A program made the position numbers and the translations under genes. Positions 10,226 to 62,188 of a DNA stretch of 64,000 nucleotides are shown one piece after another; position 1 is the first letter of the stretch, and the number at the start of each line of letters is the position of its first letter. Source of the DNA: Syntrophales bacterium (lineage in GTDB: Bacteria; Desulfobacterota; Syntrophia; Syntrophales; UBA2210); contig CAXXNF010000002.1 in NCBI GenBank assembly GCA_963666365.2, positions 1,792,001 to 1,856,000 on the forward strand, given 5' to 3'. The notes beneath the pieces were generated by a model that saw only the letters and a program-made list of their open reading frames with translations, was not told where the DNA came from and searched no databases.

Positions 10226-11239
10226 TCATGATAAAATACCGTCGAGGGGGGCGGCACAATGCGGACAGGCGTGCCCTTCCAGGTCTATCCTGTTGACAGT
10301 AAATCCGAACCGTTCGATCAGGAGGTGGCCGCAGGAGGCGCAGAAGGTGTGTTCTCCCTCGTCACCGGGGATGTTTCCTGTGTAGACGTACTTCAACCCT
10401 GCCTCTTTACCAATGTTCCATGCGCGATGGAGCGTTGCGCGTGGCGTCGGCGGGGTATGCCCCATTTTGTAGTGGGCATGGAAGCGGCTGATGTGCCAGG
10501 GGGTTTCGGCCCCCAGTGAGGCGATAAACCGGGCGATATCCCGAAGCTCTTCATCGCTGTCGTTGAGATCGGGAATGATCAGCGTGGTTATCTCTATCCA
10601 GATGCCCAGATCCTTCAGTCTTTTCAGACTGTCCAGGACCGGTTGAAGCCGTGCCCCGCAGTATCTTCTGTAGAAATCATCGCTGAATGATTTAAGATCG
10701 ATATTGGCGGCATCGAGAAAGGGAGGCATCAGCTCGATACATTCCTGCGACATGAAGCCGTTCGACACAAAGACGTTGCCGATGCCGTTCTTTCTGGCAA
10801 GTAATCCCACTTCGGAGGCAAATTCAAAAAATATTGTCGGTTCCGTGTAAGTATACGCGATGGTTCGTGAACCGCTTTGAACGGCCCTCTGTACCACCGA
10901 TTCCGGAGTGCGTTCGCTTCCCATGATTGTTCCTTCATCCCGTGGCATCTGGGAAATGCTGTGATTCTGACAGAAGGTGCAGCGAAAATTGCAGCCCACC
11001 GTGGCGACCGATAGCGAACGTGATCCGGGATAGACATGAAAAAGCGGTTTTTTTTCAATGGGATCAACATTTTCCGCAATGACCATTCCGTAGACGAGCG
11101 TATGAAGTCTGCCGTCCCTGTTTTCCCTCACGCCGCAGACTCCTCTGTGAGAGGGAGCGATAGTACACTTATGCGCGCAAAGATGACAGCGCAGGCGATC
11201 GTCTGAAAGTCTTTCGTAGAGTAGTGCTTCTTTCATCAT
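10226..11239 (-). CDS. amrS: AmmeMemoRadiSam system radical SAM enzyme
   Basis: N-terminal CHLCAHKC...CGVR, DPIEKKPLFH, CNFRCTFCQN. Confidence 0.88.
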   Translation of the reverse strand: MMKEALLYERLSDDRLRCHLCAHKCTIAPSHRGVCGVRENRDGRLHTLVYGMVIAENVDPIEKKPLFHVYPGSRSLSVATVGCNFRCTFCQNHSISQMPRDEGTIMGSERTPESVVQRAVQSGSRTIAYTYTEPTIFFEFASEVGLLARKNGIGNVFVSNGFMSQECIELMPPFLDAANIDLKSFSDDFYRRYCGARLQPVLDSLKRLKDLGIWIEITTLIIPDLNDSDEELRDIARFIASLGAETPWHISRFHAHYKMGHTPPTPRATLHRAWNIGKEAGLKYVYTGNIPGDEGEHTFCASCGHLLIERFGFTVNRIDLEGHACPHCAAPLDGILS

Positions 11240-12009
11240 TCTTTCATTTCCCGTGTCGCTGTGCCAGGTACGCGTTCATTTCCTCCCAGCGACGTCTTTA
11301 TGGAATTTTTTATCGGCTTCTGGAGCGTTCTCCGAGTGAATACAACGGGGAAAGAGACCCCTACAAAGGCGCCGAAGGGATTTTTCATCGGAGAAATTTT
11401 TTCTTCGATCTGTTCCGCAGCGGGGTACCATGAAAGAGGGAAAAAGATCACGCTCCCCCATCGAACGGGCACATCGCCCATAATATGCTTTACCATGCTG
11501 ATGAGATTGAATGGGCCAAGAAAATACGTGACGGATTCCATCGGGGCACAAATCGATCCCGCCTTCCTCAGAGTCGACGCCGAAAAAGACATCCGATTCA
11601 ACACACCCAGAAAGACCCGGTTCCTGCTGACCCGTATGGCTTCGCTGACGGCCTTTCGGATATTGCCTGCCTTTTCGAGGGATGTGATCATGGTAACGAT
11701 ATCGAATTCATTATCAGAAAAGGGGAGATCATCGCAGTCTCCCCGGTAAAGATCGGCCTGTTTCCCCATTTTTTCCCGTGCCGCCTCAAGAATGAAGGGA
11801 GATGTCTCGACACCGGTGACCGTACATCCTTTTCGCTTAAAACGGGCGAGATGATGACCTGTTTTACATCCCACATCGAGCAATCGTTCGCCGGTCTGCG
11901 GTTGGAGAAGCGACATCACGAGCTCACACTCACGCCTGTCGGTATAGGCGCCTGTGGATGACGTGAGCCACCGTTCGTAGGATCTGATTATTTCTTCATC
12001 CCGGCCCAT
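11236..12009 (-). CDS. class I SAM-dependent methyltransferase
   Basis: LLDVGCKTG; LPFSDNEFDIV. Confidence 0.8.
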   Translation of the reverse strand: MGRDEEIIRSYERWLTSSTGAYTDRRECELVMSLLQPQTGERLLDVGCKTGHHLARFKRKGCTVTGVETSPFILEAAREKMGKQADLYRGDCDDLPFSDNEFDIVTMITSLEKAGNIRKAVSEAIRVSRNRVFLGVLNRMSFSASTLRKAGSICAPMESVTYFLGPFNLISMVKHIMGDVPVRWGSVIFFPLSWYPAAEQIEEKISPMKNPFGAFVGVSFPVVFTRRTLQKPIKNSIKTSLGGNERVPGTATREMKE

Positions 12010-12094
12010 GGTCTTAGTTCACTCTTTGCCCCAGAGTTTCCAGCACACTGATGAGCGGGCATAACCCACCTATGATCCCTGTGATGTATATACG

Positions 12095-13087
12095 CTAGCC
12101 ACCGATTGCGGACATGCCTCTCACGCATTTTTTTCTTGATGTCTGATAAGAGGGACCATCATAGGATTGGGGTTTTTTGCTGATAATATCGCTGATAAGC
12201 GCTCGCAGATGACGATCGCTGCACCCCTCCCGCAAGGGGGTTTTCAGGTCCACTGACGGCTCATCCGAAAAGAGACAGGCCCTCAAATTGCCGTCCGCAG
12301 TTAAGCGAAGTCTGTTGCAGGATTCGCAGAACTGATGACTCATGGCGCTGATGAAGCCTAGTTCACCCCGGGCGCCCTCAATTTTGACTACGCGCGCCGG
12401 GCCGTGAGCTTCGTCCCTATTTCTGCCGAGATAAACCAATCGGTGGATCCGTTTTAATTGTTCTATAATCACATCGTTTGAGAGGTGCGTAAACTGCTCG
12501 TCCATAGTTCCGCCAATAGGCATATACTCTATAAATCTGACTTGATAGGGACGCTCCAGCGTGAGCCCGGCGAAGTTTTCTATCTCATCGTTATTGAAAC
12601 CGCGGATTCCCACAATGTTGATCTTTATCGGCGCAAATCCCACTTGATGTGCCTTTTCGATGCCGCGAAGCACCCGATCGAGGTCACCGCCGCGAGTGAT
12701 TTTTTTGTACTTTTCAGGGATCAGTGAATCAAGACTTACGTTAATGCGGCGGATGCCTGCATCGAAAAGGGGTTCGGCAAATTCTTCAAGGAATATCCCG
12801 TTTGTGGTGAGGCTTATGTCCCGAAGACCTTCCACTGTGCCAAGCTCGGCGAGAAAATCCACCACACCACGACGCACCAGGGGTTCGCCCCCGGTAACTC
12901 GGACCTTGATAATACCGTTTTTTACGGCCACATTTACTATTCTGAGGATTTCTTCATAACGGAGAATATCCTCGTGTCCGATAAAAGAAAGCCCCTCTTT
13001 GGGCATACAGTATATGCAACGCAGGTTGCACCTGTCGGTGATGGAAACCCTCAGGTAGTTGATGGTTCGATTATATCCGTCAATCAT
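12095..13087 (-). CDS. moaA: GTP 3',8-cyclase
   Basis: YLRVSITDRCNLRCIYCMP, FCESCNRLRLT, C-terminal MSAIGG. Confidence 0.96.
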   Translation of the reverse strand: MIDGYNRTINYLRVSITDRCNLRCIYCMPKEGLSFIGHEDILRYEEILRIVNVAVKNGIIKVRVTGGEPLVRRGVVDFLAELGTVEGLRDISLTTNGIFLEEFAEPLFDAGIRRINVSLDSLIPEKYKKITRGGDLDRVLRGIEKAHQVGFAPIKINIVGIRGFNNDEIENFAGLTLERPYQVRFIEYMPIGGTMDEQFTHLSNDVIIEQLKRIHRLVYLGRNRDEAHGPARVVKIEGARGELGFISAMSHQFCESCNRLRLTADGNLRACLFSDEPSVDLKTPLREGCSDRHLRALISDIISKKPQSYDGPSYQTSRKKCVRGMSAIGG

Positions 13088-46188: not shown

Positions 46189-46594
46189 TTAACAATTTAC
46201 CCGAATTACTTCAGCGTGCAATTTCAAGCCGAGGGCATGCAAAACTTTCAAGATGGTGTCAAACCCTGGGCTTCTTTCTCCAGAAAGCGCTTTGTAAAGA
46301 CTTTCCCTGGAAAATAGCTTTCCATCTGAACGGGCAAGAACCCAGATGTCGTTTTGTGATGGACGTGAACCTCCGGGTAATGGAAACCTGATGCTCTGGT
46401 AGAGCTAGTAACAATTCTGTTGATGGAAACTGAGTTTCAAGAACTGAAGCAACCTCTGAAGGGAAACCATTGGCCTCTTGCCATGAGTAAGCAAGGATAC
46501 GAACGGAATAGCCCTGTCGCCAGTGTTTGTCTGGCTCGGCCAGAAACTGCGCCCACTGCTCTGCGTTTGAAGTTTGGATATAAATTTTGCTCAT
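46189..46594 (-). pseudogene. DUF6946-like pseudogene
   Basis: LAEPDKHWRQGYS..LAYSWQ..GFP; frameshift before LPGGSRPSQNDIW; internal deletion. Confidence 0.6.
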
Positions 46595-46975: not shown

Positions 46976-47060
46976 ATTCCAGGGACAGTATACTTAATTT
47001 TACATCATCGGGTATTCACAAAGACTGCCTCAGTTGAATTAAGTATACTGTCCCTGGAAT
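46976..47060. mobile_element. 85-bp MITE/REPIN-like element
   Basis: perfect 24-bp inverted repeat ATTCCAGGGACAGTATACTTAATT around a 37-bp spacer; related to the RAYT IRs at 54249 and 54877. Confidence 0.8.
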
Positions 47061-47274
47061 TCAATTCAAAAAAGACCGACGCCGGTTTAAATTCGGGCGT
47101 TAGCGCCTTGATAATCTCGTCTTCTTTCCGGGTACGGTCAAGCGGAGCGAGTAGACGCACCGGTAACGCGCCATACACAATAAACGTGTCGGTTTCACAC
47201 AAAAGCGCTGCCGAGGTCCCGCTTAGCGCGATATGGCTGAAACGAGAACTGAATTGATATACTGGATTTACCAC
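47059..47274 (-). pseudogene. truncated 5' copy of the cyclodehydratase/YcaO gene
   Basis: near-identical to 53896-54111; cut at the MITE. Confidence 0.9.
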
Positions 47275-47291
47275 AGCAGGCAATCGGTCGG

Positions 47292-47543
47292 TTAACACCA
47301 AATTGAAGCTGCCACCCGCTCTTCCAGATTATCGAGGTTGGTCTCGCCTTCCTCCATATGCGGGATAACGAGGATCTCCTCGTTGGGGGCTTCTTCGAGA
47401 ACCCTGATTTTTACATAATCGGGAATTTCGACGTTCTCGCTCCTCAATACTGCGATTGGATCGCTGATGAGCCGTTGCTTGTACTCAGCATCGCCCCACG
47501 CTTTGGCTACAACCTTGGCCCACAGCTTGTTCATATCATTCAT
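47292..47543 (-). CDS. NHLP (nitrile hydratase-like leader) RiPP precursor; predicted core SIWC
   Basis: GGAGG RBS; VVAKAWGDAEYKQRLISDP..VL...IP leader signature; ends LEERVAA-SIWC. Confidence 0.88.
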   Translation of the reverse strand: MNDMNKLWAKVVAKAWGDAEYKQRLISDPIAVLRSENVEIPDYVKIRVLEEAPNEEILVIPHMEEGETNLDNLEERVAASIWC

Positions 47544-47660
47544 TACTGATACCTCCACTATGGAATTTATCTGCTTGCGAAGCAATCTTCTAGCAAGTTT
47601 AATATGTTGGCTCTATATCACCTGGGATATTGCAATGCAAGATTAAACTACATACTTCAG
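47520..47660. repeat. 141-bp direct repeat (promoter, RBS and first precursor codons), second copy at 54108-54248
   Basis: ungapped alignment with a constant offset of 6588. Confidence 0.9.
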
Positions 47661-47908
47661 AGTTGCAGCTCTGAGATCGTTTTTTCATCTGGAGCTATAG
47701 ATATGCCTTGACGAGGGATCAGAGATGTAGAATAAGTCAACAACTTAACATCAGAACGTTTCCGGGGTTCCCAACGTGCTTCTTTTTGGCCGCTGGTTGA
47801 CGCCTGATTTTGGGCAATGCTACAATTGCATCGGTCATGGCGGTAAGAAAGTGAATGTTTGATCCCGGTATGAGATGCGCCGAGCTGTCTTTTCCTATTA
47901 ACTGAATT

Positions 47909-50044
47909 ATGAAGGTTTCGGATATGAAGAACCGAAGAGTTATGCTTATAAACGCGTGTAATCCTCCGGTTAACCTCACCTATCCTTATTCATTTGTTCA
48001 AGTGGGCGAGGTGGCCGACCGCTTTGGAATTGTCATCCAGTCCATTGAACTCTTCGGCATTCCGGAAAATGAATGGGCGCAATTCCTGTGCTCCCGTCAG
48101 GAGGAATTTCGTCCGGATCTGATCGGAGTCACCCTCCGGAATACCGACTCCATGCTCTCCAGCGATTACATCCGGCGACCCCGGAACCGGGAGTATCTTT
48201 GCCCTTTTCAGGCCACCTTCTTAGAAGGGGCGCTGGAGGGGTTCTCTCCTTACTTTCCTGTCCACACCACCCGGCGACTGATTAAAATCCTGCGCCGAAT
48301 CACGGACCTTCCGGTCGTGGTCGGGGGCTACGGTTTCTCGGTGATGCCGGAACGTATGATGGATTTTCTTCGGCCCGACTACGGGGTGAGGGGCGGACCT
48401 GACGGCTTCTTTGAGAATTTCGAGGATATCCTCTCCCGCCAACGACTTCTGGAAGTACCCAATCTGCTCTATTGGGAGGGCGAGGAGCTTTGCGCCGGAC
48501 CGCTTCGTTTCTTCGGCCCGGCTCCACGGCGGGAATACAACGAGGAAAATATTCGAGACCGCGCCCGCTTCCTAGCTGCCCGCTATCTCCCAATTTCTCC
48601 CCTTTCCCGGTCGGTTCCGCTTGAGATCATCCGGGGCTGCCCCAACCGGTGTGCTTACTGTTCCGAACCCCTGGTCAAGGGCAGACAACTCCAGTACCGG
48701 GACCGGGAGGTGATCCGGGAAGAGATTGAGTTTCTGGGGCGGCACGGCTTGAATCTCCTCTGGTTCATCTGTTCGGAGATGAACACGGAAGGGAACCAGT
48801 TCATGCTGGAGCTGGCCGAGGATATGATCCGGATTAATGAGAAACGGGATGACGCTGAAAAGGTGAAGTGGTATGGGTACTATCTCCTTACCCTTTCCCC
48901 GGACGAGCTCGGTCTCTTGAGACGTTCGGGTTTCCTGGGGGGGTGGAACGATATCGTCTCATTAGATGATTCGAACCTCTCGCGGATGGGATTCCCGTGC
49001 CAGAGCAAGAACCAGATCGAGAACCTCTTTCAGATGACGGTTTTTGCCCGGGATGATTTAAAACGGAAGGGAAAGAAATCGATGACACCGGAAGAACGGC
49101 TTTTTTACGATCCGAACCATCGGGGCACCTTTGGGATGGATAATATCTGCAATCGCGGTTGGAGCCTCTTTCTCGGCAACCCGGAGACCACGGCCGAGAC
49201 CATCCGGATTACTCTGGAAAAGTTCGACCGGAAGGGATTAGCAGATTACTACGATGTGTGTTTTATCTCCCGGGCGACCAGGGTTTACGATTACATAGAT
49301 GGGATAGATCCGGAGCGCGACCGTCTCTGCTCTTTCACGCCCTCGGGTGCGGCGGCAACAGTTGATTATGTCAATCCTACCTTCTGTTTTCCGCATGATC
49401 TGCTCGCCCGGCTCGGTTCCCCCGAAGAGATAGAAAGCTTATTTACCTTGTTGGAGAATACCTATTTCTCCCGTCACCACCTATTTCAGAAGGATTGGAA
49501 CTGGTTTTTGAATCGAAACTCCAGCCCGGCGCGGTTCGGGAGAGCTTTCCGGGATGCTCTCTCCCGGGCTCGACCTCCCTTTCCAGGGGATCTCAGCCGG
49601 CTTGGTGAGGTGCGAAAATTTTTCGATTACCTGTCTGGAGATCCGTGCCCGGAACGGATCGGGTTGCTCTTCAATCCGACCCCCGGCCGGAAACACCTTC
49701 TTAATCTCGCCGCTTGGGGCGCCATTCGTTTTGTGCTCTCCCAGCACCGGGAAGAGTTGGCCCCGGTCCGGCAAATCTTGGCTCTGCCGGATTCTTACCC
49801 GGGTGGGGTGGAGCCCTCTGAGTTCCGGGTTGCCCGCTTGATCTATCGGCGGTTTGACTCCGAACGGCAGCTTCGAAAAGCTCTTCGTTCCGAACCCGGC
49901 CTCCGGCGGGGAAAACTTGAAGATCTTTTGCTGGAATATCTGCTCTATAGGAATAACCTGGTCTTACGGCCGGACTACCGCCCCTTTTTCCTGACCGAAG
50001 ATTCGTTCGGGGAGAGCGGGCTGGATGATGAAGAGTTAACTTAA
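47909..50044 (+). CDS. cobalamin-dependent radical SAM protein, TsrM-like
   Basis: LIGVTLRNTD and PVVVGGYGFSVMP in the B12 domain; CPNRCAYCSEP..KG; CSEMN. Confidence 0.85.
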   Translation: MKVSDMKNRRVMLINACNPPVNLTYPYSFVQVGEVADRFGIVIQSIELFGIPENEWAQFLCSRQEEFRPDLIGVTLRNTDSMLSSDYIRRPRNREYLCPFQATFLEGALEGFSPYFPVHTTRRLIKILRRITDLPVVVGGYGFSVMPERMMDFLRPDYGVRGGPDGFFENFEDILSRQRLLEVPNLLYWEGEELCAGPLRFFGPAPRREYNEENIRDRARFLAARYLPISPLSRSVPLEIIRGCPNRCAYCSEPLVKGRQLQYRDREVIREEIEFLGRHGLNLLWFICSEMNTEGNQFMLELAEDMIRINEKRDDAEKVKWYGYYLLTLSPDELGLLRRSGFLGGWNDIVSLDDSNLSRMGFPCQSKNQIENLFQMTVFARDDLKRKGKKSMTPEERLFYDPNHRGTFGMDNICNRGWSLFLGNPETTAETIRITLEKFDRKGLADYYDVCFISRATRVYDYIDGIDPERDRLCSFTPSGAAATVDYVNPTFCFPHDLLARLGSPEEIESLFTLLENTYFSRHHLFQKDWNWFLNRNSSPARFGRAFRDALSRARPPFPGDLSRLGEVRKFFDYLSGDPCPERIGLLFNPTPGRKHLLNLAAWGAIRFVLSQHREELAPVRQILALPDSYPGGVEPSEFRVARLIYRRFDSERQLRKALRSEPGLRRGKLEDLLLEYLLYRNNLVLRPDYRPFFLTEDSFGESGLDDEELT

Positions 50045-50200: not shown

Positions 50201-51910
50201 TTACAATTCAAAGTCGCGGTGCGTAACCGCATAATATTGGGAATAGACAAACCGCACCAGGACAACCAGGGCGAAGACCAGGGTGAGCGGCGCCAGCGCC
50301 TGTAGCAGTCTGTTCTCGGCCGCATGGTGCGTGATGAATTCATAGAACGGCAGCAGGAAAAAGATGACGGTGAACACGGTCCCGAGTAGGCCGTACCCCA
50401 ACAAGAACGCCCGGTTCACGCCCGCGAATTCTTCCGCCTGGGCCGGCTCGGTGGTACCGCACAACCGGAAGACCAGGTAGCGCAAGTAGCGGAAGGAGCG
50501 GGAGCGCAGGTTCTTGATCCCGGACCAATCCATGAGCACGTAATATCCGTCCAGGCGCAGGAACGGGTTGAGGTTGAAGAGCAGGGAGATATAGCAGATG
50601 CAGGCTAGGGCCAGCACGAGCGTATCGAGGCCCGGCAGTACGGACGAGATGAAAAAGCTGCACCAGAAAAGACAGCTGCCCAGGGCAAAAGTCGTAAGCG
50701 GACCGGCCAGGGAAATAATAGCCCGCTGCCGCCAGTCCTTTAAACGCCAGGAGGAAGAGACATCGCAATAGAAGATAAAGGCCGCCAGGTAGAACATTAA
50801 GCCGAGACGGTAGATGCGGCAGCCGTAATGTTTGCTGGCCACGCCGTGCCCAAACTCGTGGATGATGACGATGAAAAAGAGTCCCAGGTAGACCAGGGCA
50901 AACAAAGTCGGGTTTGAGGAAACGAGCAGCGGCAGGTGCTTGGCCTGTTCCACGATCCGCGTCTGGTCGAGCCACAGCGGCACCAGCCCGGAGAGTGCGA
51001 TCAGGAGCATCAGGAAAAAGCCGGCCGGCGTTGCCAGGAAGCCGAGGCTGTGGTACACCGCGGTGACGGCGCGGTCGGCGTGACGGATGGAAAAATCCGG
51101 GTTAAGAAACCGCAGTAGCACGCGTTTGGCGCCGGGGGTGGACCTTTGCCCTTCGGTCTCGTCCAGCATTCCTTCCGCTTCCAATTTTTTATAGAGCGCT
51201 TCCAAGCGAGAAGGATGGATGAGTCCGTGTTCGTCAACAAAGCGCAGGTAGAGCTCGCGCACGGTGACGCTGCCGTCGAAGCGGCTGGCGAACCACGCAT
51301 ACTGCCAGTCAAGCTCCAGAATCTTGCCGGTACCGGTATCTTTTAGCAGGGCTCTGCCCGGAGCGCCGCTGGCGGGCGGTTCTCCGCCGTCAACGATTAT
51401 GCGCGGCAACAGCCGCGGCGCCACGCTGAGCACCCAGAGCTGCTTTTCAGCATGGGCGGGTCGGAAGTATCGCTCCATAATAAACTTTTGCTCTTTGCTG
51501 CTTCGGAAAAGGCGGACCCGGTCCATCCAGTGCTTTACCTGATGCAGCCAGAGGGTGTCGGTGTTGATATCTTCCAGATCGATATCGCCGGTGCCCAGAG
51601 TGAATTCTCCAAGCAGTTCCGGGGCCAGGGGAAGCCCGTTGCGGTAATGTACTTCGATCCGTAGTTTTTCGGCCAGGATGGCCATCTCGATTTTGATTAC
51701 CTCGCCCGGCGCCTGCCGCAGCAGCTCGCCGTATACTTCTTCAATGGCCGCGAGCACGGCCTGGTAAAATACCGGCGACAGGTCTAAACGGTGCAGCAAT
51801 GTGCTGGCGAGGTCAAAGATCGTTGTGAAGTTGTCGGCGGTAACCTCGCCGGTATAGGTCATCCTGGTTGCGGTTGGGACCGCGCGGTTTGGTTTCACCG
51901 GCTTCGCCAA
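50201..51910 (-). CDS. M50 (site-2) metalloprotease fused to N-terminal HATPase-like and PqqD/RRE-like domains
   Basis: HEFGH, LAGP, NLNPFLRLDGYY; AAIEEVYGE...WMDRV; FDGSVTVREL...LEAEGML. Confidence 0.82.
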   Translation of the reverse strand: MAKPVKPNRAVPTATRMTYTGEVTADNFTTIFDLASTLLHRLDLSPVFYQAVLAAIEEVYGELLRQAPGEVIKIEMAILAEKLRIEVHYRNGLPLAPELLGEFTLGTGDIDLEDINTDTLWLHQVKHWMDRVRLFRSSKEQKFIMERYFRPAHAEKQLWVLSVAPRLLPRIIVDGGEPPASGAPGRALLKDTGTGKILELDWQYAWFASRFDGSVTVRELYLRFVDEHGLIHPSRLEALYKKLEAEGMLDETEGQRSTPGAKRVLLRFLNPDFSIRHADRAVTAVYHSLGFLATPAGFFLMLLIALSGLVPLWLDQTRIVEQAKHLPLLVSSNPTLFALVYLGLFFIVIIHEFGHGVASKHYGCRIYRLGLMFYLAAFIFYCDVSSSWRLKDWRQRAIISLAGPLTTFALGSCLFWCSFFISSVLPGLDTLVLALACICYISLLFNLNPFLRLDGYYVLMDWSGIKNLRSRSFRYLRYLVFRLCGTTEPAQAEEFAGVNRAFLLGYGLLGTVFTVIFFLLPFYEFITHHAAENRLLQALAPLTLVFALVVLVRFVYSQYYAVTHRDFEL

Positions 51911-54111
51911 TCGTCGAGCCGTATGCCGCAGTTCGAGTAGAAGAACGGGATGCGGCTCTGCTCTGCGGCGAGCCGGGGCGCCGGCAGCCAGCCGGCCCGG
52001 ACCGGCAAGTCGAAGAGGCGGGCGGTGGCGAACCGGGGCCAGAAGCGGCAGAGGCCGGGCACAATGACTCGCGTAACCACAAGCCCGTGCCCGGGCCGAG
52101 TAAGATCGATGGCCACGACCTCTAGGCCTAGCGCGGCACCGCGGGCCACCAGCAGTTCGATATCGTCTTTTAGGTTGCCGGTTTCCTGGCGCGGGAAATC
52201 GCTCGCTGTCCGTCGGGGCGCGTTAGCGGGGGCGACAAACGGTTTGGCCCAGAGTGGTTCCGGATCGTACTGCAAGCAGAAGTCGTGGAGCCGGAAATGG
52301 GGGGTCCAGTACCAAGACTGGCCCAACTCGGTGACGGCTCGATTCAGGGCGATGCCGGGATCAAGGTCGGCACCGAAACCCATTCGCGGGATCTCGCTTG
52401 GATTCGTGCGGTGGCGCGCCACTGCGACCACCACAGGCACATTAAAATCGTGGGTCAGGTCGAGAGCGTAGAAATCCCAGCCGTGCCGATCAAGATAGGC
52501 GCCCAACGGTTGCATTTGGGGCAGGGAGAAGGAATCGAGATCGAGCGCTGGCCGGGGGATCTGGTTGCACCACCAGATTGTGGCCGCATCCCGCTCAATT
52601 ACCTCGAGAAAACCGTGCAGCAGCGCTTCCTCAAGGCACCCACCCGAGGCTAGGCCGTTGGTGGCGGCATCGGCATAGTTTGTGCCATCCTCAGGAGGAA
52701 TCGAGAAATAGACGAAGGAGCGGGGCACCAGGCGCTTGGCCCGGTGGGTCAGGGACCAAGCTGGCGTCCAGGTTAGCTTCATGTCCGGTGCAAAATTGCC
52801 GGGGCCGAAGACGGGATCGGGCGGGCGGGTCGCGGCCCACTCCAGGTAGTCTGTTTCGTCGCAGCCGTAGATGCGGTGCGGCGGAACGGCTTCCCCGGCA
52901 ACTTCCGCATAACACGCCTGCACTACCGGTTCGTCGCCGCGATAGTAAGCCGAGGTCCGTTCGATCGCCTCGGCCACTGCGCTCAAACGCCCCTGCAGCT
53001 TCGTGAAGCCCTTGCCGTTACCGCCTGTGGGAACGAGGGCGCGCTTACGGTCGAAAAACCCAGCGTCGATAGGTACCGAAAAATGCGCGAGATGCGGGTA
53101 ACCGAATTCCGGCGGTACGCCGGCGAGCGGCGCCACGCGCTGCACAATCCCGGTGTGCGGGCTGATAAGCGGTTCGAGACTCGCCATGGCCTCCGCCGAG
53201 TCCCGGATGCGCAGACCGTTCTCCCGTGAGAGCTGACGGGGACGGGAGGTCAGGGTGAGCGGGGGCCCACTGTCGGGCCGGGCCCGGCGGGGGGCGCAGG
53301 TTTGGCATTGGCTGTCGTTGTCGACGCGATGGCAGCGTAGCGCTGCAGTGGCCAGATCGACGGTTACCAGGTGACCGCTAAATGCCGCGGCGGCCGGGCC
53401 GGTACCGGTTTTGCCTATTTCCGCCGCGAGCAGTTTGAACGTCGCACTGAGCGAGGCCTCCGAGCGTTCGCGGGAAAGGCGGAGCGGCTGGCCCGAAGTG
53501 CTATGGTCCAAGTGCCAGGCTTCAAGGCTGTGATTGCGTCTCAGCCGGGATATCAGACAGCCAAAGCAAGGATCGCCGTCGTGGCCGAAGCGCGGTCCGA
53601 ACCAGGGAACGCGGCCGACCGCCTTTACCGGGAGCCAAGACTGGCCGTGACTCCGGCTTGTGGCAAATTCGGCCAACTGCGGATCAAGGTAGTCGTCAAT
53701 GATGACTATTCTGAGCGGCAAGGGAACTAGGGCGGCCAAGTAGTGTTGCAAAAGCGGGCCAGCGCTGGGTTCCGTTCCTAAATCCACGATTTCCGAGAAC
53801 GCGTTTTTCCGGCTGGGCATTGCGTTGGCCGCGGTTAGCGGCCGCTTCGCGGCCGCGCTGCCGCCGGTCTCGAGGAAACCACCGTCGTGTAGCCGATTCA
53901 ATTCAAAAAAGACCGACGCCAGTTTGAATTCGGGCGTTAGCGCCTCGATAATCTCGTCTTCTTTCCGGGGACGGTCAAGCAGAGCGAGTAAACGCACCGG
54001 TAACGCGCCATACACAATAAACGTGTCGGTTTCACACAAAAGTGCTGCCGAGGTCCCGCTTAGCACGATATGGCTGAAACGAGGACTGAATTGATATACT
54101 GGATTTACCAC
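51895..54111 (-). CDS. fused TOMM cyclodehydratase (RRE, E1-like and YcaO domains)
   Basis: WFGPRF..PCFGCL, CQTC, AEAIER, TNGLASG..LEEA....EVIERDA, VIVPGL. Confidence 0.92.
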   Translation of the reverse strand: MVNPVYQFSPRFSHIVLSGTSAALLCETDTFIVYGALPVRLLALLDRPRKEDEIIEALTPEFKLASVFFELNRLHDGGFLETGGSAAAKRPLTAANAMPSRKNAFSEIVDLGTEPSAGPLLQHYLAALVPLPLRIVIIDDYLDPQLAEFATSRSHGQSWLPVKAVGRVPWFGPRFGHDGDPCFGCLISRLRRNHSLEAWHLDHSTSGQPLRLSRERSEASLSATFKLLAAEIGKTGTGPAAAAFSGHLVTVDLATAALRCHRVDNDSQCQTCAPRRARPDSGPPLTLTSRPRQLSRENGLRIRDSAEAMASLEPLISPHTGIVQRVAPLAGVPPEFGYPHLAHFSVPIDAGFFDRKRALVPTGGNGKGFTKLQGRLSAVAEAIERTSAYYRGDEPVVQACYAEVAGEAVPPHRIYGCDETDYLEWAATRPPDPVFGPGNFAPDMKLTWTPAWSLTHRAKRLVPRSFVYFSIPPEDGTNYADAATNGLASGGCLEEALLHGFLEVIERDAATIWWCNQIPRPALDLDSFSLPQMQPLGAYLDRHGWDFYALDLTHDFNVPVVVAVARHRTNPSEIPRMGFGADLDPGIALNRAVTELGQSWYWTPHFRLHDFCLQYDPEPLWAKPFVAPANAPRRTASDFPRQETGNLKDDIELLVARGAALGLEVVAIDLTRPGHGLVVTRVIVPGLCRFWPRFATARLFDLPVRAGWLPAPRLAAEQSRIPFFYSNCGIRLDDWRSR

Positions 54112-54248
54112 AGCTTATTCATATCATTCACTACTGATACCTCCACTATGGAATTTATCTGCTTGCGAAGCAATCTTCTAACAAGTTTAATGTGTTAGCT
54201 CTATATCACCCAGGATATTGCAATTCAAGATTAAACTACATACTTCAG

Positions 54249-54900
54249 GGAATTCCGGGGACACCTTACTTATCTCTTTTTTTAGATCCAGGGCTTTGAT
54301 GCTTAAGTCTTCGGCCCAAAAGGTGTTCCATTGTCCCAATAAAAGAATCAGTTCCTAAGGGCCGACCGGTTCATTCGTGTTTTCTAAATAACGCTATTTC
54401 CTGATCCTGAGCATCAAAGGACAAGAAGTCTTCCCAAGGCTCATTTACTATTTCCAGCAATGGCTTTGTTTTTACAAGGATATCATCTTTGCCTTTCATA
54501 TGTGGACTGGCACTACTCCATTGCCAGTCGCCAGGCTTTTTTTTCACCAAGCCTGCCCGAACAGGATTTACTTCCACATATCTAGTACATGCTAAGAGAT
54601 ACCCCTCATCCATGATAAAAGATGAAAACCTTCCCTGCCATAAGTGCCCACGCCATCCTTCACGAAAATTGATCCATCCTGTGTATCTTCTGTGCGCTTC
54701 ACCAATTGCCTGATTCAAACCTTCCTTTGTTTCAGGTACAACAATCAATCGTTGAAAAATGTGTGCTTCTGCCTGTTTTCTTAGTGTGTTACATGATGCG
54801 GGATTCCCGGCGCTATTGCTCTTGCTATTCGTGCCATGTTTAGAATCAATCAAACTGGCTGGCTTTTGTCAATAATTAAGTAAGGTGTCCCCGGAACTCC
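54249..54900. mobile_element. defective RAYT (REP-associated tyrosine transposase) element with 24-bp terminal inverted repeats
   Basis: GGAATTCCGGGGACACCTTACTTA at 54249-54272 and its inverse at 54877-54900 (1 mismatch). Confidence 0.8.
54266..54837 (-). pseudogene. RAYT/IS200-like transposase pseudogene
   Basis: MARIARAIAPGIPHHVT..., GHLWQGRF, RYVEVNPVRAGLV, WQWSS, RKHE*TGRPLG; stops plus an internal deletion that removes the HUH motif. Confidence 0.82.
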
Positions 54901-55940: not shown

Positions 55941-56711
55941 TTAACCATGGTCCATTTTTTCCTCCCCTTGCTCAGTGTTTTTCCGAAGTCTGTAACTGTT
56001 GCCCCGGATATTTATTATAATGCTGTGATGGAGCAGGCGATCCAGAAACGCCGTGACGATGACCGGATCGTGAAACAGCTCGGTCCAGTCGGAAAAGGCC
56101 TTGTTGGACGTGATCACAGTGCTGGCCTTCTCATAGCGGTTGGCAATGAATCTGAAAAAAAGGTTGCATTCCTCTCTGTCGATTGGTGTATAGCCGACCT
56201 CGTCAACGATCACCAGTGCCGATTTGTAATAGCTTCTTCCTCTGCCTTTGCGTCCTGCCTCGTGATCTTTTTTCAGTTTCCCGATTAGATCCTCCATCGT
56301 CGTAAAGTAAATGCTCATGCCCGCCTGACAGGCCTTCAATGCGAGAGAGACGGCCAGGTGGGTCTTGCCCACGCCCGGAGGCCCCAAAAAGATGACATTC
56401 CCTTTCTCACGGATAAAGGTCAGATCGAAAAGCGACATGACTTTCTGACGATCCAGCTTGGGTTGAAAGGTAAAGTCGAATTCATCAATGCTCTTGATAA
56501 AGGGGAGCCCCGATATCTTCAGCGCCGTTTCCACCCGTCGCTGTTCCTTGCAGGCGATTTCCTCTTCCAGCAGTTCGTCGAGAAAGGAAAGATAGCTTGC
56601 GCTTTTTTCCTCGGCCGTTTTGGTCGCCTGTACAAGTATGGCGCCCATTCGGGAGAGCCGAAGCCGCGTGAGACTGGACTGTATGCGATCGACAAGCAAT
56701 GTCTCGTTCAT
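55941..56711 (-). CDS. istB: IS21 helper ATPase
   Basis: GPPGVGKTHLA Walker A; DEVGY; TSN; DRLLHH. Confidence 0.95.
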   Translation of the reverse strand: MNETLLVDRIQSSLTRLRLSRMGAILVQATKTAEEKSASYLSFLDELLEEEIACKEQRRVETALKISGLPFIKSIDEFDFTFQPKLDRQKVMSLFDLTFIREKGNVIFLGPPGVGKTHLAVSLALKACQAGMSIYFTTMEDLIGKLKKDHEAGRKGRGRSYYKSALVIVDEVGYTPIDREECNLFFRFIANRYEKASTVITSNKAFSDWTELFHDPVIVTAFLDRLLHHSIIINIRGNSYRLRKNTEQGEEKMDHG

Positions 56712-57967
56712 AGGCCCATCTCCCCGACGAGCGAGTCATACAGCGCTGTGGGACGGATTTCAACGTCCATGGTGGCATAGGACGACTTCAAGGGACTGAT
56801 GGTGCATTTGGCGCGTCCCTTACCGTGTCTGCCCCGGCCATATTTGCGCTTGTTCATCTCCCGGTCTTTTCTGAGCGCCTCGTAGAAGCGGGGATCTTGG
56901 ACCAAGTTCCCCTTGCCTTCCGGAATGTCGTACGTCGCCAACAGGCAATCGTCGTGGAATATCCGCATGCATCTGTCCTTGACCCGTAAAATCAGATGCT
57001 TCCCCACCACGGTATGGGGCACTACATAACTGTTGCCTTCGAAACGGACCAGGCAGTCCTTGCTGACCTTGCGGTACACGCGGTACGACGTATCGAAAGG
57101 GCGGGAAGGCAACGCCTGTAAATGAGGAAGTTCGCGGGCGAAACGGCACGCTACGACTTCATGGGTGGTGCCGTGCACACGCTCGTCTTTCATTGCAATC
57201 CATTGCTGAAGATCTCGATTGGCCGTTGTGAGACACACATATCCGTACCCCCTCCAGAACCCTTCACGGATGAAATGGTAGGGCCGCTCGACTTTTCCCT
57301 TCACCCAGGCGGCATAGGCGGGGGCAACCGCCGGTTTGAACCCATTATGCAGCGCAAAGGCCATCAGCGTGTCGTTGAATCGATCTTTGCCGGCCAGTTT
57401 CCCGATGAACACGTTTCTCATGCGATCGTAAAGTATCTCCGCCGGGATGCCCCCGAAATGTTCGAAGGCGCGAATATGACAATCGAGAAAGGTGGGCAGG
57501 TCGCATCGCTCAATGAATTCGCCATACAGTTTTCTGGAGTATCCCAGAATCATTGAAAACAGATAGAGCTTCTTGACGCTCCCGTCGGCATTGGCAACCT
57601 GGAATTCACCAAAATCCACCTGCGCCTGAAAGCCCGGCTCCGTCTCAAACCGCATATAGGCCACGCGCTGTTGTTCCGCTTTGAGCTGATGCACCTGCCT
57701 TTTCACGATTTCATAACTTCCGGTAAATCCCATTGCACGGAGCCGATCATAGAGCAGGGTGGCCCTGTACTCGCCGTCTTCCTCCAACCATGCCGCAATA
57801 TTGTCCCTATAGGGATCTACGAGACTCTTGCGCTTCGCCTTCTCTCTCGTAACTCCCTGATCCCCTTGATTCTCTATATACTTCTTCACCGTGTTCCTGC
57901 TGATCCCCAGCTTCCGTGAAATGTGCCTCTGGCTCAGTCCTCTTCTCTGTAATAACAATATGTCCAA
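56708..57967 (-). CDS. istA: IS21 transposase
   Basis: N-terminal HTH; RFETEPGFQAQVDFG; KGKVER. Confidence 0.95.
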   Translation of the reverse strand: MDILLLQRRGLSQRHISRKLGISRNTVKKYIENQGDQGVTREKAKRKSLVDPYRDNIAAWLEEDGEYRATLLYDRLRAMGFTGSYEIVKRQVHQLKAEQQRVAYMRFETEPGFQAQVDFGEFQVANADGSVKKLYLFSMILGYSRKLYGEFIERCDLPTFLDCHIRAFEHFGGIPAEILYDRMRNVFIGKLAGKDRFNDTLMAFALHNGFKPAVAPAYAAWVKGKVERPYHFIREGFWRGYGYVCLTTANRDLQQWIAMKDERVHGTTHEVVACRFARELPHLQALPSRPFDTSYRVYRKVSKDCLVRFEGNSYVVPHTVVGKHLILRVKDRCMRIFHDDCLLATYDIPEGKGNLVQDPRFYEALRKDREMNKRKYGRGRHGKGRAKCTISPLKSSYATMDVEIRPTALYDSLVGEMGL

Positions 57968-61112: not shown

Positions 61113-62012
61113 TTACTCGATGGACGCTCCTTTACCGAAATTACATTCATTGCAGAGCGTTCGTAGATTATCAATTACCGTCTTTCCGCCTTTTGACCAA
61201 GGAACGATATGATCAACATGTAGCTCAAGGTTTGCTGTATTGGCCGGGCTTCGACCGCATTTTTCACATTTGTAGTTTGATCTCTTTAAAATTTTCCATC
61301 GACGCCCAAGAGGTATATCTCTTCTCTCTGGAACTGGTACTGATTGTTTCCTCTGCTTCGGACCATTAATGGTCGGAGGCGGAGCGGGCTGGTCGGAGTT
61401 TGCATATTCCACAAATGCCTCAAGAGCTTTATTCCACGTACCCCACTTTACAATATATGCTTTTCCACCAACTTTAGACGGCGGTGCTGACATTTCTCGA
61501 TAATATGGCTCCCTACCAAGGGTAGACCACATTAACAAAATATTCTCGTAACACTCTTCTTCTGTATATCGTCGCCCATGTGTTTTTGCTTGGAGTCCTG
61601 CACGCTTTAATGCCGCATTCCATGAGCCGAATCTTCTGCGAACTGTATCTGGACTTATAGTTGAGTGATCTCTGAACTCATTAACTGTTAACGTTTCCTT
61701 TCCAAGCGTTCGCGCAACTTCTATAACTTGTAAAAGCACCTCATCATCCATTGCTTTTGCGCCCTGGCGTTGAGTTTTTTCAGATAATGTTGGCGTATTG
61801 TATAAATGAGGGAATCCGGAAATCGTTAGTGCGTTTTTCCAACTTACGAAGCGTCTACGAACAGTGGTAAGACCTACTTTAGAATGTTTTTGGAACTCTG
61901 CGGTAGAAAGGGTACCGCTTGATACAAGCCTACAAACTCTTTTAATTTCTGCAATTAAATTATCATCCGAATAATCAGAAAGACGTTTTAGTTTAAACGA
62001 AAATTTTTTCAT
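61113..62012 (-). CDS. HNH endonuclease with homing-endonuclease-associated repeats
   Basis: three TVRRRFGSWNAAL-type repeats; CEKCG...LHVDHIVPWSKGG...NLRTLCNECNFGK; start placed inside the cassette boundary. Confidence 0.88.
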   Translation of the reverse strand: MKKFSFKLKRLSDYSDDNLIAEIKRVCRLVSSGTLSTAEFQKHSKVGLTTVRRRFVSWKNALTISGFPHLYNTPTLSEKTQRQGAKAMDDEVLLQVIEVARTLGKETLTVNEFRDHSTISPDTVRRRFGSWNAALKRAGLQAKTHGRRYTEEECYENILLMWSTLGREPYYREMSAPPSKVGGKAYIVKWGTWNKALEAFVEYANSDQPAPPPTINGPKQRKQSVPVPERRDIPLGRRWKILKRSNYKCEKCGRSPANTANLELHVDHIVPWSKGGKTVIDNLRTLCNECNFGKGASIE

Positions 62013-62036
62013 AATTGTGCTGTAAAAATTTTTGTG

Positions 62037-62188
62037 CTCTAACGGGGCCGCGGCTGAGCTGCGGTCCGAAGAAAATTGTAATTTTCTGAGGACCGGCAGA
62101 TCAAGCCGCGTGTTCGTCCGCCGCAGGCGGCGGCACGTGGCGACAGTCGCGGCCCCGTTCATCCCGACCGCTTGCGGTCGGGATGAAC
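62037..62188 (-). mobile_element. gene-less 145-bp cassette: long branched attC-like site plus a 32-bp palindrome
   Basis: AACGGGGCCGCG...CGCGGCCCCGTT outer stem; GTTCATCCCGACCGC-TT-GCGGTCGGGATGAAC. Confidence 0.7.

Follow-up and report, generated by a model that had tools for sequence, protein, structure and literature searches.

Within a stretch of 64,000 nucleotides from a Syntrophales bacterium (contig CAXXNF010000002.1, positions 1,792,001 to 1,856,000; the whole stretch is called the window below, and coordinates are counted from its first letter), a 7-kb block of four genes brings together the makings of a RiPP (a peptide that is made by ribosomes and modified after translation) and a gene for a cobalamin-dependent methyltransferase whose fold is that of radical S-adenosylmethionine (SAM) enzymes. 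The latter gene, our main subject, occupies positions 47909..50044 of the + strand as an intact open reading frame (ORF) of 711 aa (P0001), and its product is of the type of TsrM, the tryptophan 2-C-methyltransferase. The other three genes are on the - strand: an NHLP-leader RiPP precursor at 47292..47543, an intramembrane metalloprotease of the M50 type at 50201..51910 and a fused E1-like leader-binding/YcaO cyclodehydratase at 51895..54111. The enzyme gene thus stands between the precursor, from whose start codon it is 366 nt away on the opposite strand, and the M50-YcaO operon, with which it is convergent and from the end of which it is separated by 157 nt. About 80 nt upstream of its start there is a sigma-70-like promoter match (47797..47826, + strand; TTGACG, an 18 nt spacer and TG-TACAAT), a consensus match only, in which 10 of the 12 hexamer positions agree. 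The public protein set has only a 444-aa form (P0002; 48710-50044), which begins at an internal GTG at residue 268 and is devoid of both the cobalamin domain and the Cys triad; the full-length homologues, of which there are 83 clusters, favour the 711-aa ORF.

The enzyme is poorly captured by the existing family models. In Pfam the B12-binding and Radical_SAM domains score 24.2 and 25 bits, both below the gathering threshold, and among the NCBIfam models the best score is that of rSAM_ladder_B12 (TIGR04072; 95.3 bits for a cutoff of 360), followed by BzaD (TIGR04385; 71.1 bits for a cutoff of 450) and TsrM (TIGR04428; 58.1 bits for an equivalog cutoff of 500). Since every curated model scores below its cutoff, we are dealing with a cobalamin-type radical SAM protein that is claimed by no curated family; orthology with TsrM itself was rejected on the same grounds (58 bits against 500, with two other models scoring higher). 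Nevertheless, TsrM is its nearest solved structure, by sequence as well as by fold, and the match is much stronger than chance would give. A phmmer search of the single protein against PDB gave TsrM (6wte) as top match with an E-value of 4.6e-12, and a profile built from 34 family members matched it with an E-value of 4.5e-27 over TsrM residues 4-277, the runners-up being MgmA (3.3e-08) and CysS (6.4e-07). An AlphaFold2 model of the enzyme, computed from the family alignment (pLDDT 88.8, pTM 0.90), retrieved with Foldseek four TsrM chains (6wte/6wtf) at the top of the list, at E-values of 3.9e-20 to 1.5e-19 and TM-scores of 0.62-0.66 (for the TsrM length); TokK, CysS, OxsB and MgmA ranked lower. 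The overall architecture, a B12-binding Rossmann domain in N-terminal position followed by a radical SAM barrel, agrees with that of TsrM, TokK, CysS and OxsB at Foldseek E-values of 1e-14 to 1e-20. The initial annotation, which had called the protein TsrM-like on the strength of its motifs, was therefore well founded, all the more so as the counterparts of the three TsrM hallmark residues (R69, E236 and E273) are invariant in 34/34 family members.

All four motifs quoted in that annotation were located in the 711-aa ORF, and three of them coincide with the stretches that phmmer aligns with 6wte (GVTVRNTD, PVVGGGIGFSTMP and CSHCVEPDAKG in TsrM). The downstream cobalamin motif GVTLRNTD (residues 73-80; 48125..48148, +) aligns with TsrM GVTVRNTD, its G73-V-T75-L-R77 being matched to G65-V-T67-V-R69, that is, to Gly65-x-Thr67-x-Arg69. 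The Gly-Gly cobalamin-binding motif PVVVGGYGFSVMP (residues 135-147, P135 to P147; 48311..48349, +) corresponds to PVVGGGIGFSTMP, and the cluster motif C244xxxC248xxC251-S-E253-P254-L-V-K-G258 (48638..48682, +) to C227/C231/C234-V-E236-P. The fourth, S289-E290-M-N292 (48773..48784, +), is at the 'GGE' SAM motif position, where the profile alignment passes through TsrM T-D271-S272-E273-F-N and pairs C288-S289-E290 with D271-S272-E273; E290 is, by its position, a candidate ligand of the cluster. The residue equivalences obtained by alignment are thus R77 for Arg69, E253 for Glu236 and E290 for Glu273, TsrM positions being read from HMMER alignments to 6wte; these alignments show the Kitasatospora setae enzyme, with which the TsrM motifs given in the initial annotation agree approximately. 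In TsrM, Arg69 is reported to block the lower face of the cobalamin, its replacement by Lys abolishing Trp methylation, and Glu273 to ligate the unique iron and to block SAM cleavage; both residues are tied there to the non-radical catalysis of the enzyme (PMC8992657, PMC9204698). Glu236 is described as a polar exception, the solved radical methylases carrying Trp, Tyr or Phe between cobalamin and cluster (PMC12931638). The two enzymes thus share a G-x-T-x-R motif with the lower-axial Arg, GG-x-GFS-x-MP, CxxxCxxC-x-E-P-x-x-K-G and an S-E-x-N with Glu at the cluster-ligating position, and both are encoded beside RiPP genes. They differ in that identity is only about 19% in the structural alignment, and in that the window enzyme exceeds TsrM by about 135 residues and has a helical region at its C-terminus for which, taken alone, PDB offers no fold relative. 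Furthermore, TsrM acts on free L-Trp in a thiopeptide (quinaldic acid) pathway, whereas genes for such a pathway were absent from the 40 window ORFs scanned.

What surrounds this catalytic core is a family of its own. By a word-based search we obtained the 83 clusters of full length (608-710 aa, with 28-44% identity and 86-99% coverage); among those that carry a name, many are labelled as metagenome-assembled genomes (MAGs) of Asgard archaea. An exhaustive search among 1.84 billion representatives brought 90 proteins at an E-value of 1e-30 or below, 254 at 1e-10 or below and 1206 at 0.001 or below. On these matches, we assign the enzyme to an undescribed family, its members about 680 aa long, which comprises 90 representative clusters at E<=1e-30 and extends over Asgard archaea, Actinomycetota, Myxococcota, Cyanobacteriota and Chloroflexota. 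In the 34-sequence alignment R77, D80, G139, G140, F143, C244, C248, C251, E253, P254, G258, S289 and E290 are invariant, and the window enzyme keeps every one of them. The mostly helical C-terminal region (residues 427-711; 49187..50041, +; pLDDT of 88.1 in AlphaFold2) was found by the initial annotation to be a long extra part. It is indeed there, and peculiar to the family rather than to this gene: since the C-terminal half is conserved in the family alignment and in all full-length homologues, this 'extra' region is common to the family as a whole. When it was modelled by itself, Foldseek gave no match in PDB at E<=0.001 (the best was at 0.097), and Pfam has no match for it. In a quick maximum-likelihood tree of 68 rows (the window protein, 6 outgroups and those 61 locus ORFs that have 560 aa or more; the other 11 loci, with partial ORFs, were left out), the window protein is sister to the Asgard clade (SH-aLRT 87), and the sequence nearest to it, at 44% identity, is that of a Thorarchaeota MAG. 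Outside the family, the closest sequences (E-values of 1e-22 to 1e-14) are proteins of 430-560 aa. Among the NCBIfam models, these score best either with TsrM (240-285 bits, short of the cutoff) or with the ladderane-lipid radical SAM model, whose cutoff is reached by some of them. A feature-based atlas search, which counts as a lead only, put two unnamed radical-SAM/B12-binding clusters of 651 and 717 aa, both of which we take to be family members, ahead of a 'Tryptophan 2-C-methyltransferase family' cluster in third place. No match to the enzyme was found by tblastn in 72,556 plasmids. Two cyanobacterial loci stand out by their arrangement: L037 has two family members (706 and 524 aa) on opposite strands and a few hundred bases apart, and in L068 the gene appears split into ORFs of 427 and 305 aa.

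The three other genes of the block belong to a RiPP system. The precursor (P0210; 47292..47543, -) passes the NHLP model TIGR03793 (59.7 bits for a cutoff of 50.9) and matches Pfam NHase_alpha (E-value 6.8e-13). Translation probably begins at ATG 47543, with a GGAGG eight bases ahead of it, and would give a protein of 83 aa ending in ...NLDNLEERVAASIWC, the form that the database also has, while a longer ORF extends to 47585 (97 aa). Since there is no Gly-Gly site and the NHLP model ends near L87 of the 97-aa ORF, the core has at most about 4-9 residues. The C-terminus, ...LEERVAASIWC, does contain the Trp that the initial annotation had placed in the core, and this Trp adjoins a Cys that YcaO could cyclise. 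The protease (569 aa; 50201..51910, -) matches Pfam Peptidase_M50 (E-value 5.6e-11), has an HExxH motif, scores 173 bits with the NCBIfam daptide_HExxH model, below the cutoff of 300, and is likely the leader protease; the M50/daptide-type model matches it from residue 187 on, the first ~186 residues being without a family match. The fused cyclodehydratase (738 aa; 51895..54111, -; Pfam YcaO, E-value 7.7e-83) passes both models of thiazole/oxazole-modified microcins (TOMM), the SagD-type TIGR03604 (221.5 bits for a cutoff of 219.25) and the cyclo_dehyd_2 model TIGR03882 (88 bits for a cutoff of 36.9). The locus thus resembles NHLP/TOMM clusters with a fused E1-like/YcaO protein, whose NHLP, SagD-type and leader-binding models it passes, and it shows the same precursor-then-YcaO order as the plasmid-borne relatives of this fused YcaO, which sit behind a precursor gene in the company of varied tailoring enzymes. 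It departs from such clusters by its very short putative core, of only some 4-7 residues (...VAASIWC) and devoid of a Gly-Gly cleavage motif, by the TsrM-type methyltransferase as sole extra enzyme, and by having an M50/daptide-type protease where they have a SagB dehydrogenase and a C39/ABC exporter: neither a SagB-type dehydrogenase nor an exporter was detected among the 40 window ORFs scanned. There is no second NHLP ORF in the window, and when precursor relatives were sought with a word-based search, nothing other than the 83-aa form from the window itself came back.

This locus bears the marks of a rearrangement. Two direct repeats are present, D1 (47059-47277 = 53896-54114, 96% identity) and D2 (47520-47660 = 54108-54248, 94% identity). 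The left copy has the promoter and the intact precursor; of YcaO it has no more than about 80 codons, a truncated duplicate of the 5' end of that gene (47005..47301, -; phmmer E-value 2.4e-37) in which homology stops at 47059. In the right copy, the promoter and 5' end of the precursor are found again (54105..54248, -; repeat D2), with the precursor body deleted: what remains is 8 codons and a stop (54131-54105), a 249-nt deletion having occurred between two copies of GCTGTGG, and behind it stands the intact YcaO gene. The sole intact precursor is therefore placed before the YcaO stump, and the YcaO start in the right copy lies directly behind the precursor's ribosome-binding region. Because the repeats bracket the radical SAM, M50 and YcaO genes, the arrangement fits a unit (radical SAM gene, M50, YcaO, precursor and promoter) that would have been duplicated as a whole and then partly deleted. 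The four-gene block is flanked on both sides by gene fragments and mobile-element genes. At the left border (46259-46594) there is a truncated gene whose DUF6946 match spans the first 69 of 214 profile positions. At the right border, 54371-54853 corresponds to a fragment of a transposase associated with repetitive extragenic palindromes (REP-associated tyrosine transposase; 35 bits, below cutoff), and 55941-57967 to an apparent IS21 pair, with ORFs of 419 aa and 256 aa that resemble IstA/IstB and are named from sequence. The idea that the block could be a foreign high-GC island was tried and rejected: the G+C content at third codon positions (GC3) of its four genes (0.61-0.75) falls inside, or close to, the values for housekeeping genes in the window (0.55-0.72), and it is the immediate flanks of the block that have a low GC3.

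What does the enzyme methylate? If it is the tailoring enzyme of a small NHLP-derived peptide, the steps, in an order that we infer, could be the following: the fused YcaO would bind the leader and cyclodehydrate Cys and/or Ser of the C-terminal S-I-W-C, the methyltransferase would add a methyl group to the indole of the Trp beside the Cys, most likely at C2, and the M50 protease would remove the leader. We put the chance that the enzyme acts on a precursor-derived peptide at slightly less than even. That the methylated site is C2 of the precursor Trp, as the initial annotation had proposed, we hold only tentatively and, on balance, consider unlikely; the proposal is only partly supported, by the adjacency of the genes. 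A peptide substrate is favoured by the position of the gene inside the four-gene block, by the Trp beside a cyclisable Cys and by the usual occurrence of the family in biosynthetic clusters, and also by the fact that the block has no other enzyme capable of using or attaching a small molecule once methylated. A structure prediction for a complex of the enzyme with the 83-aa precursor, run without controls, scored 0.00 both times and is used neither for nor against binding.

The alternative that survives best is that of a TsrM-type polar methyltransferase acting on a small molecule (free Trp, another indole or an electron-rich aromatic), its adjacency to the RiPP genes being due to rearrangement or co-transfer; we regard it as a serious possibility, although one somewhat short of an even chance. 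The neighbourhoods of homologues weigh against a peptide substrate. A genome scan provided 72 homologue loci, from Asgard archaea, Streptomyces and other actinomycetes, Myxococcota, Cyanobacteriota, Chloroflexota and Pseudomonadota, with flanks of at least 4 kb on both sides in 44/72 and on one side in 16/72. When the NHLP, M50 and YcaO proteins of the window were compared by phmmer with all ORFs of these loci, 0/72 loci gave a match at E<=1e-3, although the same procedure found YcaO in 3/3 control plasmid loci (E-values of 1e-86 to 1e-96) and one NHLP precursor. The co-occurrence of homologues with NHLP/YcaO genes, on which the initial annotation had staked its own proposal, was thus not borne out in these loci. 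Pfam likewise identified no RiPP gene among representatives of the conserved neighbour clusters (43 proteins), and neither a RiPP gene nor a conserved pattern among 62 neighbours from the 11 loci closest to the window protein; in the closest clade, the Asgard one (38-44% identity), there is no conserved neighbourhood. What the conserved bacterial neighbours resemble is small-molecule biosynthesis: oxidoreductases of the GFO/IDH/MocA type, cupin/JmjC proteins, short-chain dehydrogenases/reductases (SDR), methyltransferases and a sugar epimerase/dehydratase, together with nonribosomal peptide synthetase condensation-adenylation (NRPS C-A) modules, carbamoyltransferase, P450, SnoaL, ATP-grasp, thiamine pyrophosphate (TPP) enzymes and ketoacyl synthase III (KAS III). 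Since the bacterial members of the family are found in such biosynthetic-cluster-like surroundings, they behave as a recruitable tailoring enzyme, and the actinomycete, proteobacterial and myxobacterial relatives are among small-molecule enzymes.

Properties of the enzyme itself point in the same direction. No leader-recognition domain of the RiPP recognition element (RRE) type was detected beyond its catalytic core by Pfam, NCBIfam or the Foldseek search with the C-terminal region, an absence that is compatible with action on a peptide. The C-terminal extension, being family-wide and present in non-RiPP contexts as well, is no adaptation to a peptide substrate; it argues rather for a substrate class common to the family. 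There is also no clear sign of a change of substrate in the conserved columns of the window protein among 34 members: it departs from the family at 11/83 highly conserved columns, the sixth highest number of the 34, mostly by conservative changes. To this must be added the precedent of TsrM, which is encoded in a RiPP cluster and yet has free Trp as its substrate (PMC11285071), and the duplication and deletion scars, accompanied by IS21 and REP-transposase remnants, which show that the region has been reshuffled, so that the adjacency of the enzyme and RiPP genes may be secondary. On the other hand, the chance landing of a housekeeping or otherwise unrelated gene between a precursor and its maturation operon, in a block of only four genes, is improbable, and the direct repeats, which bracket the radical SAM gene together with M50 and YcaO, would fit the duplication of the unit as a whole. 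Like the want of a partner enzyme for a methylated small molecule in the block, these points count against the small-molecule reading.

Some of the homologue neighbourhoods deserve a mention in their own right. One of them recurs in Streptomyces and Kitasatospora (L015, L019, L023-L026, L030, L033, L034, L056 and L061) and looks like an uncharacterised small-molecule cluster; it carries genes for a GFO/IDH/MocA oxidoreductase, a cupin/JmjC protein, an SDR, a methyltransferase and an NAD epimerase/dehydratase, along with ORF families devoid of a Pfam match, some of the unnamed ORF clusters being possibly antisense artefacts of high-GC DNA. In L031 (an unclassified bacterial MAG), L035 and L065 (Thiohalocapsa), NRPS C-A and carbamoyltransferase genes adjoin the homologue in 3/3 cases; both Thiohalocapsa loci also have a sulfotransferase-type ORF, and L065 has SDR and cupin genes besides.

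Whatever the substrate, the transfer of the methyl group is probably of the polar, TsrM type. In a mechanism of that kind, SAM would methylate cob(I)alamin, Arg77 under the corrin would keep the methylcobalamin five-coordinate and reactive, and a nucleophilic sp2 carbon would receive the methyl as a cation equivalent; the enzyme would thus work like TsrM and unlike the radical methylases of class B. The main basis for this prediction is a comparison of 74 sequences, labelled by their best-scoring models only and including, like the tree, no sequence that passes the TsrM or BzaD cutoff. Arg at the R69 position was found in all groups (34/34 in the family, 15/15 in the TsrM-best outgroup, 15/15 in ladderane-best proteins below cutoff and 10/10 in those passing the ladderane model); being present in 74/74 sequences, it has no discriminating power. 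The two other positions, by contrast, co-vary: an acidic residue at E236 combined with Glu at E273 occurs in 34/34 family members (as Glu plus Glu), in 15/15 of the TsrM-best and in 9/15 of the ladderane-best proteins below cutoff, and in 0/10 of the proteins passing the ladderane model, which have Tyr plus Val/Thr/Ile. The family is therefore on the TsrM side. The uncharacterised 'TsrM-best' cobalamin radical SAM proteins (450-560 aa, e.g. P0085 and P0110) are among the sequences nearest to the family from outside it, within the same supergroup, and in 15/15 cases they have its Arg, an acidic residue behind the Cys motif and the Glu of DSEFN; a search with P0085 returned P0085's own family, and among the best 120 of 749 matches none was shown to pass the TsrM cutoff. 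These proteins, like BzaD, which is predicted to methylate an aromatic sp2 carbon (PMC12931638), and like the proteins of the ladderane model, lack the long C-terminal domain of the family.

The competing possibility, that of a conventional class-B radical methylase using 5'-deoxyadenosyl (5'-dA) chemistry on an unactivated sp3 carbon, either of the peptide (Ile, or Val/Ala C-beta, as for PoyC and the bottromycin methylases) or of a small molecule, with the TsrM-like residues as ancestral baggage, seems to us improbable. By analogy, it would be the usual expectation for such a gene beside a precursor; most of the characterised cobalamin radical SAM enzymes of RiPP clusters are described as radical C-methylases (PMC11285071). 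PoyB/PoyC, the bottromycin enzymes BotRMT1-3 and, on proteins, Mmp10 and MgmA have the same cobalamin-dependent radical SAM fold and ribosomal peptides or proteins as context, and are reported to use radical chemistry for the methylation of unactivated sp3 carbons (PMC11285071, PMC12931638). In the window enzyme, CxxxCxxC motif and radical SAM barrel are both intact, and its top NCBIfam score is with a ladderane-type model (95 bits). Moreover, a Glu at the 'GGE' position is said to be common among radical SAM enzymes generally, radical ones included (PMC8992657), and Mmp10 is reported to have a fully ligated cluster while its chemistry is radical (PMC9692996). As the Arg, too, is present in all 10 ladderane-type proteins, neither this residue nor the Glu proves non-radical chemistry when taken alone, and this tempers the prediction of a polar transfer. 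What speaks for that prediction all the same is the polar Glu that the family has at the place where, according to PMC12931638, the solved radical methylases carry Trp/Tyr/Phe, the contrast at both Glu positions with the 10/10 proteins passing the ladderane model, and the PDB sequence matches, which are about 19 orders of magnitude weaker for the radical methylases (MgmA 3.3e-08 and CysS 6.4e-07) than for TsrM (4.5e-27). Finally, that the cluster is a decaying remnant and the enzyme without a current role in this genome is very improbable, for although one YcaO copy is truncated, the precursor is deleted from the copy before the intact YcaO, transposase genes and fragments adjoin the cluster and neither an exporter nor a dehydrogenase of the SagB type is among the scanned ORFs, the four genes all have intact ORFs, the methyltransferase has lost none of the family-invariant residues, one precursor copy retains its Shine-Dalgarno sequence and start codon, and the right-copy YcaO start is directly behind a precursor ribosome-binding region.

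The enzyme thus combines a TsrM-type catalytic core with membership of a separate family that has an additional, unrecognised domain, and it occurs in a RiPP setting that is not seen for its relatives. According to a 2022 review, no cobalamin-dependent radical SAM enzyme other than TsrM was known to act in a non-radical manner, and low sequence similarity hampers telling which other members act non-radically (PMC9204698). The three invariant hallmark residues, together with the contrast to ladderane-type proteins at two of them, offer a testable sequence signature of polar versus radical chemistry. We found neither a TsrM-type enzyme acting on peptidyl Trp nor an NHLP/YcaO cluster with a cobalamin methyltransferase in the literature open in PMC and bioRxiv. 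The enzyme could be the first TsrM-type methyltransferase, non-radical and transferring a methyl from methylcobalamin to an sp2 carbon, to have been recruited to peptide-bound Trp, with a tiny NHLP-derived peptide ending in 2-methyl-Trp-thiazoline as product, and it would also open a first functional approach to a family, about 90 clusters strong, that combines the TsrM catalytic triad with a new C-terminal domain and is widespread in Asgard archaea and bacterial biosynthetic clusters; this is a possible outcome, though not one that we expect. Should the peptide Trp be methylated, C2-methyl-tryptophan would join the RiPP modifications and the TsrM type would gain a new substrate mode; should it not be, the question would shift to the small-molecule substrate of the family in Asgard archaea and in actinomycete clusters.

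Elsewhere in the window, a few other genes may be noted. The ORF at 59390-60316 matches an anti-phage nucleotidyltransferase model (147 bits for a cutoff of 350), and 61113-62162 gives a weak C-terminal match to an IscB-type RNA-guided endonuclease (42 bits for a cutoff of 175). At 10226-13087 there are two further, unrelated radical SAM genes, one of the AmmeMemoRadiSam system (347 bits) and the other for MoaA (376 bits); between the two stands a class I methyltransferase gene.

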